From positions 7,779 through 71,778 of the forward strand of contig JBDRLO010000040.1 of NCBI GenBank assembly GCA_043812935.1: DNA of 64,000 nucleotides. Direction: 5' to 3'. How positions within the stretch are numbered: position 1 is the stretch's first letter; each line of letters starts with the position of its first letter. Below, in pieces: positions 42,813 to 59,902 of the stretch. A program made the translations under genes and the position numbers. The DNA is from Candidatus Omnitrophota bacterium. GTDB lineage: Bacteria; Omnitrophota; Gorgyraeia; Tantalellales; Tantalellaceae. A model generated the notes under the pieces. It was not told the DNA's origin and searched no databases. It saw only the letters and a program-made list of their open reading frames with translations.

Positions 42813-42882
42813 GGACAGGCACAAGGACCTGTTCCTACATATTTATTTTTAGGTCCCGGACAGGGACAAGCCCTGTCCCTAC
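42813..42882 (-). repeat. two adjacent REP-like palindromes
   Basis: GGACAGGcacaaggaCCTGTTCCTAC (42813-42838) and GGACAGGGacaaGCCCTGTCCCTAC (42858-42882). The GTAGGG head is on the minus strand. Confidence 0.8.
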
Positions 42883-42929
42883 GTTATTTTCATCAATTTT
42901 TAAAAATATATTCTCTCGATCTTTGAAAG

Positions 42930-43394
42930 TTACTTTAACTGCAAATGTTCATTAATCACTTTCCTCAGTTCATCAACTGAAGAAAGTTTTATTACTCCGG
43001 GAATATCCCACGAAGAAAATCCATAAACTGTTTTTTTTGAAACAAGCGCGAATCCAATTTCCGAAAGAGTTCCATATTCGCCGGGTAAAGCAATTACAAT
43101 GTCTCCCGCTGAAGCTACCAGAACATTTCTGGAATATCCCATACCGGTTGGGACAACAATATCAATAAAATCATTTGCAGATTCTTTATCCTCCCCCGGA
43201 ATTATTCCAAGTGTGGTTCCACCGGCGTGTTTAGCCCCTTTTGCCGCAGATTCCATTACTCCGCCTAATCCCCCGCATACCAAAACCGCTCCTGACTCAC
43301 CTACAACACGTCCAATTTCTTCAGCCAACGCTGAAACCGATTCATCTTTTTTATGCCCGCCTATTACTGATACTAAAAACTTTTTATTTTTCAT
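42930..43394 (-). CDS. TIGR00725-like LOG/DprA-type Rossmann protein
   Basis: VLVCGGLGGVMESAAKGA and ALPGEYGTLSEI motifs. Start at the ATG with GAGGAG. Confidence 0.7.
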   Translation of the reverse strand: MKNKKFLVSVIGGHKKDESVSALAEEIGRVVGESGAVLVCGGLGGVMESAAKGAKHAGGTTLGIIPGEDKESANDFIDIVVPTGMGYSRNVLVASAGDIVIALPGEYGTLSEIGFALVSKKTVYGFSSWDIPGVIKLSSVDELRKVINEHLQLK

Positions 43395-43420
43395 CTTACT
43401 CCTCAGCATTCCACACTATT

Positions 43421-43535
43421 ATATTGATTTGGCATATCACACCATTTTTTCGATAATCTTACCAATTATTGATGATTTTGTATTTTTTATCTGTTCTCAC
43501 AACACTACTCGAAATCACCAGTCCATATTTTACTT
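43421..43535 (-). pseudogene. second, more decayed relic of the RAYT-like gene
   Basis: About 80 percent identical by eye to 45236-45310 (CACTATTATATTGATTTGGCATATCACACCATT...CCAATTATTGATGATTTTGTA). It translates in broken frames to SIIGKIIEK / WCDMPNQYNSVE. Confidence 0.5.
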
Positions 43536-43547
43536 CAATGATCCTCT

Positions 43548-43571
43548 GTAGGGGCAAGGCATGCCTTGCCC
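43548..43571 (+). repeat. REP-like palindrome
   Basis: GTAGGGGCAAGGCATGCCTTGCCC. Confidence 0.8.
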
Positions 43572-43588
43572 TTCTAAATACGTCATAG

Positions 43589-44716
43589 TTAAATTAATTT
43601 ACTGATAATATTTTTTACTGTTTTCGCAATTGCAGGCGACGCGGTTAATCCGGGAGACTCTATGCCAATAAGATTAACAAACCCTTCAAATCCAAGAGAT
43701 GCTTCATGTTTAATAACAAAATCACGAAACCCTTCACCCTTTTTCTGCAGTTTCGGCCTTATCCCGGAAGTATCAACTGAAAGGTCATCTTTTTCAAGAA
43801 ACGGTAAAAAAGTTTTAGTGTCCGCATAAAACAAATTACTTTTATCGGGATTAATAGCGTAATCCATATTTCTATTGTTTACATATTCCGCGTCCGGGCC
43901 AAGCCTCACTCCACCGGTTAAATCCGGGGTAACATGTATCCCCAAAAATGTGTCATCAGCATTAGCTACCGGATATATTAATCGTTTAACCATTAAATTT
44001 TTTCTGTTTCCAACACGAAAATAGTCTCCTTTACAATAAGACAATTTATAATCCTTATTTTTGATTCCAATCATCTCGGAAATAACGTCCGCCTCTAATC
44101 CGGCACAATTAATCACTATCCTGGACAAAAACGCCATTTCTTCGTTTGTATTGGACATAATTGTTACTTTATATCCATCCGGAACTTTTTCTATACTTTT
44201 AATTTCAGAATCATAAACTATATCAGCCCCGTTTGATTTGGCTTTTAACAAGAAATACTCCATTAAAGAATGGGAATCAATTATCCCGGTCATAGGAAGA
44301 TATATAGCCCGGCACGCTCTTATATTGGGCTCTAATTCTGCTATTTCTTTTTTATCCAACATTTTTAACCCCTGCAGGCCGTTTTCCATTCCCTGCCTGA
44401 ACAATTTTTCCAGGCCTTCAAGATCTGAATTATCGCGCGCTATAATCATTTTTCCTATTTTTCTATGCGGAATCTTTCCCTGCCGACAAATATCGTACAG
44501 TAATTCATTGCCTTCTACACACGTTTTTCTTTTAAAAGAATCTTTCGGATAATAAATTCCGGAATGAATAACTTCACTATTGCGGGAACTGGTTTCCTGT
44601 CCAAACGAAAAATGTTTTTCAAAAATGAAAATATCTTTATCTTTTTCAGCAATGCTAGCAGCAACCGCTAACCCAACAACACCACCGCCTATAATCGCGA
44701 CATCTATTTTATCCAT
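43589..44716 (-). CDS. FAD-dependent oxidoreductase (DAO family, L-2-hydroxyglutarate/glycerol-3-P oxidase-like)
   Basis: DVAIIGGGVVGLAVA dinucleotide fold; 375 aa. Confidence 0.75.
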   Translation of the reverse strand: MDKIDVAIIGGGVVGLAVAASIAEKDKDIFIFEKHFSFGQETSSRNSEVIHSGIYYPKDSFKRKTCVEGNELLYDICRQGKIPHRKIGKMIIARDNSDLEGLEKLFRQGMENGLQGLKMLDKKEIAELEPNIRACRAIYLPMTGIIDSHSLMEYFLLKAKSNGADIVYDSEIKSIEKVPDGYKVTIMSNTNEEMAFLSRIVINCAGLEADVISEMIGIKNKDYKLSYCKGDYFRVGNRKNLMVKRLIYPVANADDTFLGIHVTPDLTGGVRLGPDAEYVNNRNMDYAINPDKSNLFYADTKTFLPFLEKDDLSVDTSGIRPKLQKKGEGFRDFVIKHEASLGFEGFVNLIGIESPGLTASPAIAKTVKNIISKLI

Positions 44717-57902: not shown

Positions 57903-57941
57903 TTTTTACCTCCAGTTTTGCAATTTTATTTTTCCTGCCAT

Positions 57942-57995
57942 AAAACAAAAAAGGCGTTCTTTCTCCTATATCAAGAAAGAACACCTTTGTTCTTT
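57942..57995 (-). promoter_or_regulatory. terminator with competing upstream hairpin in the gdhA leader (attenuator candidate)
   Basis: RNA AAAGAACA-AAGG-UGUUCUUUCU-UGAUAUAGG-AGAAAGAACGCC-UUUUUUGUUUU. The 12-bp terminator stem (GGUGUUCUUUCU/AGAAAGAACGCC) shares its left arm with an 8-bp alternative hairpin. Confidence 0.5.
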
Positions 57996-58060
57996 AGCAT
58001 CAATCTGCCTTGGCTGCTCCTGTTGCAGCAAAGGCATTATCCCTTATGCCGCTATTTAAG

Positions 58061-58429
58061 TCAAGAAAAAAATACTTCTTCGTCTTTAACAGCCCATGGC
58101 GGATCCACAATACACAAAAATACTAATTTTTCTTCGCCAATATTTTCAATAAACTGTACTGCCTGCGGCGGAATGTAAACAACCGATTCTGCCCTGACTT
58201 TTTGAGATTCGTCATTTATATGCATTAGCCCTTTTCCGGATAAAATATAGTATACCTCCGATGCCTTTTTAAGCTTATGTTTGGTCGATTTCTCTCCTGG
58301 CCCAAGAACCGCATGAGCCAAGCTATAGCGTATACTTAAATTTTCTTTATCCGGATGTAAAATTTCACGTAAAACTGTTTTGTCGCCCGCAACAAACTCT
58401 TCACATTTTGATAATTGTTTTATCATCAT
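58061..58429 (-). CDS. cupin-domain protein
   Basis: 122 aa with a small beta-barrel pattern (HKLKKASEVYYILSGKGLMHINDE...VYIPPQAVQFIEN). Confidence 0.65.
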   Translation of the reverse strand: MMIKQLSKCEEFVAGDKTVLREILHPDKENLSIRYSLAHAVLGPGEKSTKHKLKKASEVYYILSGKGLMHINDESQKVRAESVVYIPPQAVQFIENIGEEKLVFLCIVDPPWAVKDEEVFFS

Positions 58430-58441
58430 AATTCCAACTTT

Positions 58442-59752
58442 TTATAATGAAAATAAAAGGGTTTTTCCTGTAAAAAAAACTCCCGCGACACAAGCTGTCA
58501 TTAAACAAGCCAAAGTAGCGCCTAATAACGCTCTTAATCCTAAACTTCCTAAGATACGTGTTTTTTCAGGAACAATAGCAACAATCCCTCCGATAAATAT
58601 TGCCAACGAAGCTATATGCGCAAAACCGCATAAAGCATAAGTGGCAAGAACGGCTGAACGTGGATGAGCCAAAAGACCTTCTTTCAATATTCCCGCAAGA
58701 TCCTGATAAGCTACAACCTCTGTAAGAATAGTTCTTTCTCCTATAATTTGAGAAATAATCCCGGCATCTTCTACCGGAACCCCTATTATTAAAGTAAATG
58801 GATAAAAAATGTAACCTAAAATATTTTTTAAAGACCAATCAAATTGACAATTAAAAAAAACGTTAATCTTGCTGCCGATTCCACCCAAGAAAAGGTCAAA
58901 TAAGGCAACAAGACCTAAAACCGCTAAAAGTAAAGCCGCGATACCAAATATCATTTTTATTCCGCTATTCGCCCCATTAATTATAGATTCAAACAAATTA
59001 TTTTCCTTTTCATAATGCGCCTTTACATTTCCACTTATTGTTACAGGAACTTCGGATTCAGGCATAATAAGCTTTGACATAACAATTGCCGCGGGAACGG
59101 ATAATAATGACGCGGAAATTAGATGTCCCGCAATAGTCGGAAAATGGGTTTTTAAACTAAATACGTACACAGCTAAAATATTGGATGCCACTGTTGCCAT
59201 CCCACAGGTTAAAACAGTACATAATTCTGAAGAAGTCATAGTTCCTAAATAAGGCTTCGCCGTAAGAGCGGATTCTACTCCCACAAAGATATTACTCGAA
59301 GCAACTAGCGATTCCGCGCCCGAAATTTTCATTAATCTTGTAAAAACACGGGAAAATAGTCCTATAATTTTAGGCATTATTCCACAAAAATACAGAATTG
59401 ACATCATCGCCGAAAAAAACACTATCGTAGGCAACGCTTGAAACGCAAGAATAAACCCTAACGAAGTTTCTCCGTTAGCACCAGTCATGCCCGGCGCTAA
59501 ACTCAACCTTCCGAAAAGAAACTTTGTACCAGCCATAGCCGAATCTAAACCTTTTACGACTACCCCGTTAATGATTAAAAACACCTTTTCACCTACCGGG
59601 ACAATAAAAATAAATACTGCTATAAAAACTTGAATAGCAATACCCCAAATAACAACTTTCCAGTTTATATTCCGTTTATCCGGTGAAAAACTCCATGCAA
59701 AAACTAAAAGAATAAAAATCCCTGCCAAACTAACAAAATTATACACATCCAT
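58442..59752 (-). CDS. nupC: NupC/NupG-family concentrative nucleoside transporter
   Basis: 436-aa polytopic protein with CNT-type motifs (GTKFLFG, GFILAFQALPTIVFFSA, LCGFAHIASL). Confidence 0.82.
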   Translation of the reverse strand: MDVYNFVSLAGIFILLVFAWSFSPDKRNINWKVVIWGIAIQVFIAVFIFIVPVGEKVFLIINGVVVKGLDSAMAGTKFLFGRLSLAPGMTGANGETSLGFILAFQALPTIVFFSAMMSILYFCGIMPKIIGLFSRVFTRLMKISGAESLVASSNIFVGVESALTAKPYLGTMTSSELCTVLTCGMATVASNILAVYVFSLKTHFPTIAGHLISASLLSVPAAIVMSKLIMPESEVPVTISGNVKAHYEKENNLFESIINGANSGIKMIFGIAALLLAVLGLVALFDLFLGGIGSKINVFFNCQFDWSLKNILGYIFYPFTLIIGVPVEDAGIISQIIGERTILTEVVAYQDLAGILKEGLLAHPRSAVLATYALCGFAHIASLAIFIGGIVAIVPEKTRILGSLGLRALLGATLACLMTACVAGVFFTGKTLLFSL

Positions 59753-59792
59753 TTGTATTTTATCTCTTTATTTGTACTCTGCCACGTGTTAC

Positions 59793-59902
59793 GGACAGGC
59801 ACAGGAGCCCTATACCACGCAGGGTATAGGGCAAGACCTGTCCCTACCGGCAAACCAACCAGCAAAACAGCAAACCGGCTAACTGGCCAACCGGCTAACC
59901 AA
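59793..59902 (-). repeat. composite post-stop element: seven 8-nt units plus nested-hairpin REP
   Basis: Minus strand after the stop: TTGGTTAG CCGGTTGG CCAGTTAG CCGGTTTG CTGTTTTG CTGGTTGG TTTGCCGG TAGGGACAGGtcttgCCCTATACCctgcgtGGTATAGGGctcctgtgCCTGTCC. Confidence 0.85.

Follow-up and report, generated by a model that had tools for sequence, protein, structure and literature searches.

REP elements, short hairpins rich in GC, are recognized as single-stranded DNA at their GTAG foot by RAYT (TnpA-REP), an HUH/Y1 tyrosine transposase. The published description of one type of this transposase, subclass 2.4, includes stems with a GGG base, "double-foot" REPs, and REPs that lie within the transposase gene and keep its reading frame (Quentin et al. 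2018, PMC6006769). GTAG-tagged REPs as a whole form a super-family with stem sub-families, found downstream of ORFs (Di Nocera et al. 2013, PMC3733652).

Here, we analyzed a 64,000-nt stretch of DNA (the window) from an NCBI Candidatus Omnitrophota MAG, in which an original prediction had described dispersed GTAG-headed, REP-like palindromes. We consider it probable (about 0.78) that these repeats are GTAG-class REP elements tied to a RAYT, a transposase of the type described as subclass 2.4, this assignment being set by described traits and not by placement in the published tree. As a kind of bacterial repeat the hairpins are ordinary; their host here is an uncultured member of the Omnitrophota.

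As in subclass 2.4 (PMC6006769), the elements have a GT[AG]G foot, long canonical stems that often begin with three G-C pairs, double-foot forms and in-frame REPs in the transposase gene, and the homologues carry HUH and WQR..Y..H motifs. In contrast to that subclass, this clade adds a conserved in-frame hairpin before HUH (site 1), not only between HUH and Tyr, and the window holds dead gene copies only. With the GTAG-tagged super-family (PMC3733652; Nunvar et al. 2010, PMC2817692), they share GC-rich palindromes of 20-40 nt in which GTAG is left unpaired at one end, stems that form sub-families and change in a complementary way, loops that vary, a location downstream of ORFs with occasional copies inside genes, and head-to-tail groups. 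However, head-to-tail dimers were rare in the published survey and are the sole dimer type here, and most copies here are preceded by a periodic 8-mer array. The host also differs, since the phylum Omnitrophota is absent from the surveyed list and the host DNA is AT-rich (37% GC).

The E. coli REP/BIME elements and Pseudomonas REPINs (Bertels and Rainey 2011; RAYT groups 2 and 3, PMC5581495) are likewise extragenic palindromes tied to a domesticated single-strand transposase, and the motifs beside the REPs in the window recall BIME linkers. Unlike in those systems, the free copies here form no inverted doublets, and the RAYT can be multi-copy with fragments (L001); nor is it of the same clade as E. 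coli YafM. The subterminal hairpins of IS200/IS605 involve the same transposase fold, single-stranded hairpin substrates and a short guide at the foot, whereas the free hairpins in the window have neither bracketing IS ends nor a transposase cassette and are only ~25 nt long.

A family of GTAG-headed hairpins

GTAG(G)-headed GC-rich hairpins were present at all eleven main coordinates of the original prediction, and the window scan confined the family to 42.8-59.9 kb (Table 1). Under strict criteria (a GTAG head, a fully paired stem of 7 bp or more, a GC fraction of 0.6 or more and a loop of 2-12), the window yielded 8 copies, whereas 100 dinucleotide-preserving shuffles gave 0.05 on average and never more than 1. 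By itself, the heptamer GTAGGGR showed no significant excess in the window (12 found versus 6.9 expected). No family copies were found in the remaining 47 kb of the window, and a relaxed scan of its first 42 kb returned only noise.

The elements measure 23-28 nt, except for two with enlarged loops of 55-58 nt in all (45315 and 59793, with long or nested loops). Their stems span 6-10 bp, with RNA dG values from -9 to -30 kcal/mol. The unpaired GTAG foot was seen in all 11 copies, that at 42813 reading GTAGGA, and of the 9 distinct stems, 5 had a GGG foot and 4 a GGA or GAA foot. The predicted co-variation of the stem arms was confirmed: in the six distinct 8-bp stems, all 48 pairs were Watson-Crick, with both sides changed at 5 of the 8 positions. 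As anticipated, the copies lay mostly outside coding regions (10/11 outside long ORFs, in a window with a coding density of ~91%).

Seven copies are free-standing, in five spacers, each just 3' of a minus-strand gene, and in six of them GTAG lies on the sense strand of the upstream gene. The remaining four (42813, 42858, 43548 and 45315) lie in or beside three RAYT remnants. The REPIN-like doublets that the original prediction had proposed to look for did not appear among the free copies of the window, all of which are single or head-to-tail. The head-to-tail groups in the window are the pair 42813/42858, with the former 45 nt downstream of the latter, and the triplet at 54.9 kb, a tandem of 2.5 copies with a 98% match and a 51-nt period. 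Inverted hairpin pairs occurred only inside RAYT ORFs and in other genomes (e.g. L028 and L025).

Table 1. Hairpins, 8-mer arrays and RAYT remnants located in the window
Feature	Position	Strand	Evidence or remark
Degenerate REP, GTAGGA head, bulged stem	42813..42840	-	RNA dG -8.9
REP GTAGGGACAGGGCTTGTCCCTGTCC, site-1 hairpin of RAYT remnant R3	42858..42882	-	1 nt from L123 internal hairpin
REP GTAGGGGCAAGGCATGCCTTGCCC	43548..43572	+	Hairpin scan
Site-1 hairpin of R1	45315..45372		In-frame position; 29-nt loop insertion versus L207
Free REP GTAGGGGACAGGCATGCCTGTCCC, FBA-to-MscS spacer	47524..47550	-	Only copy with U-rich tail
Free REP GTAGGGGCGGGGTTTCCCCGCCC, Grx-to-TrxR spacer	53428..53450	-	Hairpin scan
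Three head-to-tail REPs (GTAGGGACAGGCCCCCGAGCCTGTCC), Dfx-to-Rbr spacer	54846..54973	-	51-nt period
Double-foot REP, perfect 26-nt palindrome TAGGGGCGAGGCATGCCTCGCCCCTA	56305..56331	+	dG -22.4
Free REP, second hairpin nested in loop, GGDEF protein/nucleoside transporter spacer	59793..59847	-	dG -30.5
Degenerate relative, one GGTTAGCC unit then TAGGAAGCAGGTATGCCTGTTT	14725..14764	-	No GTAG, one stem mismatch
8-mer array GGTTAGCC AGTTAGCC GGTTAGTC GGTTAATT + GAT	47551..47589	-	4 nt after FBA stop codon, reaching GTAG
8-mer array GGCTGGCT GGTTGATT GGTTCGCC GGTTAGCC	53451..53495	-	Glutaredoxin stop TGA inside second unit
Short array AGTTAGCT AGTTAATT + GAT	54974..54997	-	Between Dfx stop codon and first REP
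8-mer array (GGTTAGCC GGTTGGCC AGTTAGCC GGTTTGCT ...)	59848..59902	-	2 nt after stop codon, reaching GTAG
8-mer array alone (GGTTAGCC AGTTGGCC GGTTAGCT GGTT), without hairpin	11757..11788	-	4 nt after stop codon
RAYT relic R1, residues 1-95	45175..45498	-	HMM E = 4e-31
RAYT remnant R2, ~residues 52-78 (SSIIGKIIEK..)	43412..43480	-	~80% DNA identity to R1
RAYT remnant R3, ~residues 28-52 (KDRENIF..NNVGTGLVPVR)	42853..42930	-	DNA alignment and translation

8-mer arrays beside the free copies

In front of most free REPs, beginning at the stop codon of the upstream gene, runs an 8-mer array, (GGTTAGCC)n. The array and the GTAG head are strand-specific, in the sense of the upstream gene, and the array can fold as RNA via G-U pairing. 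It constitutes the 5' flank of the free copies, in contrast to the AATAAC (Asn-Asn) codons found at this position within the RAYT gene. Similar arrays without a hairpin also occur in L127, and in distant phyla the same hairpin has no array in front. We infer that the array before most free copies belongs to the local element.

RAYT remnants and homologues

Three RAYT gene remnants, R1, R2 and R3, all of them dead, lie inside the REP cluster, and their site-1 hairpins are of the same sequence family. The view that all copies are intergenic except one inside a transposase relic needs to be revised, because three hairpin loci (42813/42858, 43548 and 45315) lie in or adjoin the three remnants. R1 covers the first 95 residues of a Y1/HUH transposase of 176 aa whose full-length homologues carry PF01797, and it is 52-56% identical to PF01797 proteins. 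It contains an in-frame stop (HI*LKNYDYS) and an HUH motif mutated to PNQVHG, and is cut right after the HUH region, at the start of a GNAT gene. R2, for which the tblastn matches are weak, is directly upstream of a SLOG gene, and the REP at 43548 lies ~65 nt upstream of it in the sense of the gene, at the position expected for the site-1 hairpin. R3 was aligned at the DNA level with R1 (45.3 kb), with the intact RAYT of L123 and with the relic of L207. All three copies break at hairpin positions: site 1 marks the end of R3 and precedes the start of R2, and R1 stops just short of site 2.

The intact RAYT genes of related Omnitrophota (L001, L123 and L124-126) contain two internal in-frame GTAGGG hairpins in inverted orientation, which flank the HUH-coding segment. 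The L207 RAYT relic also carries in-frame hairpins, both identical in sequence. HUH and WQR..Y..H motifs are present in the homologous proteins, and several family members are named "REP element-mobilizing transposase RayT" by JGI. The family comprises 25,436 representatives of 50%-identity clusters, many of which carry hairpin-coded inserts, such as VGAGLVPAR and RAGTRPAPT. Two gene copies (95% identity) and a fragment were found in L001, and a RAYT fragment lies upstream in L124, indicating that the RAYT of this clade can be multi-copy with fragments.

The traits of subclass 2.4 were found in the window and in its relatives: in-frame REPs in the gene (relic 45315-72, L001, L123, L124-126 and the L207 relic), and the GGG stem bottom and double-foot form (5/9 stems, 56305 and L127 6593-6618). 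The REP/RAYT reading of the original prediction is thus upheld by R1 together with two further remnants, by the in-frame hairpins of the homologues and by published GTAG REP traits. No intact RAYT of the source MAG was found in the window or among the best 120 family matches; these include five NCBI Omnitrophota proteins, with accessions far from the MFH1395xxx range of the MAG. Within 10 kb on either side (20 kb) of the intact RAYT genes of relatives, there were no free REPs, so that the enzyme is linked to the free REPs by sequence identity and by the literature, and not through co-occurrence here.

Distribution and turnover of the copies

A pattern search recovered the same 26-mer hairpin class in more than 118 stretches from ~60 assemblies of many phyla. 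We compared the window with two syntenic relatives, L207 (~82% nucleotide identity) and L127. The REP at 47524 is present only in the window and missing from the orthologous spacers of both relatives. The REP at 56305 is also restricted to the window and lies in the middle of a 112-nt segment without counterpart in L207, a clean indel. In the 53428 spacer, L127 has a REP with a different stem and L207 has none, and the 54.9-kb site holds three copies in the window, one plus a remnant in L207 and none in L127. L127 in turn has a REP at a position where the window has none. These differences in which spacers hold copies indicate that copies have been gained and lost.

Origin of the free hairpins

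The hairpins might be durable fossils of repeatedly decayed RAYT copies and not independently mobilized REPs, the GC-rich in-frame hairpins having outlasted the surrounding AT-rich coding sequence. Four of the eleven do lie in or beside recognizable remnants, the REP at 42858 differs by only 1 nt from a hairpin within the intact RAYT of L123, and the RAYT genes of this clade can be multi-copy and have fragments (L001 and L124). However, the flanks of the seven free copies contain no RAYT-like sequence even at a tblastn E of 50, and their 5' side is the 8-mer array and not the AATAAC codons of the gene. A fossil origin also fits poorly with the 51-nt tandem at 54.9 kb, with the compact 112-nt indel around 56305 and with the more than 118 matching stretches in other phyla, none of which has a RAYT ORF beneath it; we regard it as unlikely.

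It is extremely improbable that the hairpins are ordinary Rho-independent terminators, alike through shared constraints. Every free copy is just downstream of a gene, and several copies had been proposed to double as terminators; only 47524, with its canonical U-rich tail (6/8 T) in the transcribed direction, looks like one, and 42858 does so marginally on the plus strand, whereas the U tract is absent in 9 or 10 of the 11 copies (no more than 3 T among the 8 nt that follow the stem). Moreover, conservation extends to the unpaired GTAG head and to the loop sequence, neither of which a terminator needs, the same sequence also occurs inside RAYT ORFs and in many phyla, and two copies are in the opposite orientation. 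Host-selected 3' UTR RNA modules of array plus hairpin, spread by local duplication and gene conversion without a transposase, would agree with the strand-specific array and head in the sense of the upstream gene, the tandem triplication at 54.9 kb, the G-U pairing that allows the array to fold and the existence of similar arrays without hairpin. Such modules would nevertheless leave unexplained the identity with RAYT-internal hairpins, the GTAG foot and the same hairpin in distant phyla without an array, which makes this origin very unlikely.

If the repeats are RAYT-linked REPs, the free copies would have spread through a RAYT that cleaves and rejoins single-stranded DNA, and the same activity would sometimes have amplified them in tandem. 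As the three local RAYT copies are dead, current mobility would need an intact RAYT elsewhere in the genome. The six sense-oriented free copies probably form part of the 3' UTR of transcripts, and their stable hairpins (dG -14 to -30 kcal/mol) would there shield the upstream mRNA from 3' exonucleases, not terminate transcription classically; the free hairpins may act as RNA stabilizers. It is a tentative and rather doubtful idea that the RAYT gene of this clade carries its own substrate, being both the source of the free REPs and a target of the enzyme it encodes, and, separately, that the array is a new 3' UTR module or a preferred landing site. A RAYT carrying its own hairpin substrate would explain why all three local copies are broken at hairpin positions.

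Other predicted repeats and ORFs

Three weaker relatives had been proposed outside the cluster. The sequence at 14725 was retained as a degenerate relative, lacking GTAG and having one stem mismatch. Those at 24616-24690 and 26225-26299 belong to a different family: both are 83-nt long inverted repeats, with almost the same sequence. The ORF at 54720-54986, which had been dismissed as a spurious translation of the repeats, exists mechanically but has no free place in the NCBI protein numbering, consistent with that claim.

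Identification of the hairpin family

A GC-rich hairpin following GTAG(G) was present at all 11 main coordinates of the original prediction (copies are named here by their start, e.g., REP 47524). The strict scan recovered eight copies, compared with 0.05 expected from dinucleotide shuffles, and its top-scoring tetramer "heads" were all substrings of one element. The predicted covariation was likewise confirmed: six different 8-bp stems were perfectly complementary, with changes on both sides at five positions. Stem pairing was tallied directly; in the MAFFT alignment, stems differing in register were not in phase. 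GTAG was on the minus strand in 9 of the 11 copies, and the family ranged over 42.8–59.9 kb only, in a window with a GC content of 37%. Further copies were sought by relaxed hairpin scans in place of a covariance-model search, and elsewhere in the window these scans returned only noise, except for a degenerate copy at 14725, which had been proposed as a weaker relative. The sites at 24616 and 26225, proposed in the same way, belong to another family, made up of long inverted repeats of 83 nt. The suggestion that several copies double as terminators largely failed, as a U-rich tail was found only at REP 47524, together with a marginal one at REP 42858 on the other strand.

The reading of these hairpins as REPs linked to RAYT (TnpA-REP, HUH/Y1 tyrosine transposase) was upheld: they are REPs of the GTAG class, and the RAYT clade to which they belong is of a kind described before. 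Members of the GTAG superfamily are reported downstream of ORFs and form stem subfamilies (Di Nocera et al. 2013, PMC3733652), and TnpA-REP subclass 2.4 is characterized by REPs lying in frame within the transposase gene, stem feet of GGG, and REPs of "double-foot" form (Quentin et al. 2018, PMC6006769). A CRISPR origin was rejected, given that there were no spacers and at most three tandem units, as was a MITE origin, because the elements are ~25 nt long and neither terminal inverted repeats nor target duplications were seen. No family in Rfam matched these hairpins. By analogy with the family, we infer how the hairpins may have spread and what role they might have at the RNA level.

Decayed RAYT genes and their intact relatives

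Three decayed RAYT gene remnants (R1–R3) were found in the window. R1 was identified by homology search, and its full-length homologs P0003 and P0004 are 175- and 176-aa proteins bearing PF01797; a Pfam and NCBIfam search of the relic gave nothing, or E = 0.019 at best. R1 contains an in-frame stop, its HUH motif is altered to PNQVHG, and it ends directly after this motif, at the start of a GNAT gene. REP 43548 lies ~65 nt upstream of R2. The copies had been described as intergenic except for one inside a transposase relic; 10 of the 11 did lie outside long ORFs (the window is ~91% coding), but R1–R3 each have associated hairpins, and therefore 4 of the 11 are gene-derived or gene-adjacent. 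R2 and R3 flank a SLOG-domain gene, and the close relative L207 has a radical-SAM gene in place of the 42.8–45.2-kb region (SLOG, FAD oxidoreductase, and GNAT).

Repeats, RAYT remnants, and a small ORF in the window
Feature	Position	Strand	Remarks
R1	45175–45498		includes ORF 45160–45420; residues 1–95 of P0003/P0004
R2	43412–43480	minus	residues ~52–78; DNA alignment
R3	42853–42930	minus	residues ~28–52; DNA alignment; its hairpin is REP 42858
8-mer array	11757–11788	minus	GGTTAGCC and variants, periodic
8-mer array	47551–47589	minus	as above
8-mer array	53451–53495	minus	as above
8-mer array	54974–54997	minus	as above
8-mer array	59848–59902	minus	as above
Inverted repeat	24612–24694		83 nt
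Inverted repeat	26221–26303		83 nt
Shorter inverted repeat	56470–56528		downstream of GDH gene
Small ORF	56186–56262	minus	MKVIVRYMLRPVAHCKEGCSILSRI; upstream of rubredoxin gene

The gene family is very large, comprising 25,436 representatives of 50%-identity clusters (E below 0.001), some of which are named "REP element-mobilizing transposase RayT" by JGI. In many members, two hot spots contain inserts: VGAGLVPAR-like sequences following FGxI and RAGTRPAPT- or GQPQGVAPT-like sequences following the HUH motif; these inserts are GTAG hairpins translated in their two orientations. The intact genes in stretches L001, L123, and L124–126 contain exactly two GTAGGG hairpins, inverted, and none besides these lies within 20 kb. 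In the related contig L001, the RAYT gene is present twice (8053–8842 and 10768–11560, ~95% protein identity), with a fragment at 13069–13236, and each copy is bracketed by the direct motif GCTCAAACGTTATAAA. This arrangement is nearer to an insertion sequence than to the single-copy RAYTs of the literature.

Occurrence of the hairpin in other phyla

The commonest REP variant was used as the search pattern (GTAGGG(N)ACAGGC-N2-8-GCCTGTCC) against a genome collection. Among the matches listed, the pattern occurred in more than 118 stretches from ~60 assemblies of the Latescibacterota, Nitrospirota, Nitrospinota, Acidobacteriota, Chloroflexota, Armatimonadota, Bacteroidota, Actinomycetota, Bacillota, Omnitrophota, Muiribacteriota, and others; the MAG of the window was not among the matches listed. 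The loop was conserved too (CCYCYGT), and many copies were paired with an inverted partner. Essentially one hairpin sequence, loop included, thus recurs across many phyla, which fits an old and strongly constrained enzyme–substrate pair. Narrow and broad RAYT profiles revealed no RAYT ORF under the 118 cross-phylum loci listed. A conserved 30-nt flank, GAGGGAATCCCGATCATCGAATTGTTCACC, precedes the REP in L012, L013, L025, L065, L070, L072, L085, L087, and L114; it is common to different assemblies, from sponge-associated MAGs and others, suggesting a larger composite repeat in these MAGs.

These results add an uncultured, AT-rich lineage of Omnitrophota to the known hosts of GTAG REPs and of the RAYTs partnered with them, and our literature search found no paper tying REPs to Omnitrophota. 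The lineage of the window is a new host for GTAG REPs, and the RAYT copies found for it all lie within the window and are all dead. In metagenome annotation, the hairpins are a source of spurious ORFs and of peptides such as VGAGLVPAR and GQPQGVAPT, so recognizing them cleans gene calls.

Gain and loss relative to syntenic stretches

Two syntenic relatives, L207 (GCA_043811395.1; ~82% nucleotide identity to the window) and L127 (70–82%), cover 46–62 kb of the window and provide dated cases in which REPs were gained, lost, or expanded in tandem. The 45.3-kb relic is orthologous in L207, where it is frameshifted and retains PNHVHG and both hairpins as identical inverted copies, indicating that the gene was dead before the two lineages split. 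Compared with L207 and L127, REP 47524 and REP 56305 are present only in the window, the latter within a clean 112-nt indel. At the 54.9-kb site, the window carries three copies in tandem and L207 a single copy; L127 lacks the element there. In the 53.4-kb spacer, the window and L127 carry REPs with differing stems and L207 carries none; a REP upstream of FBA in L127 has no counterpart in the window. On this timescale, REP copies have therefore appeared, disappeared, and multiplied.

Neighboring repeats and genes

Units of GGTTAGCC, on the sense strand of the upstream gene, precede most of the free copies (seven hairpins in five spacers apart from the RAYT remnants). The arrays start at the stop codon or within 4 nt of it, in one case with the stop codon inside the array, and one array is not followed by a hairpin. 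The strong array loci numbered four, compared with 0.19 in shuffles. GGUUAGCC can self-pair via G-U pairs. A role as a three-frame stop device was rejected, since only two of the five arrays have stops in all three frames. L207, L208, and L127 contain arrays related to these, and the orthologous Dfx spacer of L127 holds a heptamer array, (CAGTTAC)n.

The two 83-nt repeats differ from each other at ~2 nt. The foot of this family (GGGGACAG / TAGGGACAGC) fits the GGGGWSAS motif, which has been reported in inverted repeats on either side of tyrosine transposases (PMC3733652). L127 also has an element of this kind downstream of GDH.

Of ten proteins from the window, nine were identical to NCBI proteins in the range MFH1395093–MFH1395114, which belong to a "Candidatus Omnitrophota bacterium" MAG and lie on an 80,639-bp contig. 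The window shows a consistently negative GC skew, and the majority of genes are on the minus strand, which is presumably the leading strand. The 52–56-kb region codes for thioredoxin-reductase-like, glutaredoxin, rubrerythrin, desulfoferrodoxin, and ferritin proteins, indicating that the organism is an anaerobe. A trpE-like ORF stops at 42659, but nucleotide homology to L207 trpE runs on to ~42780, with the frame resuming; either a frameshift or an error in the assembly accounts for this break. The small ORF upstream of the rubredoxin gene shows ~90% DNA conservation in L207, above that of the surrounding spacer.
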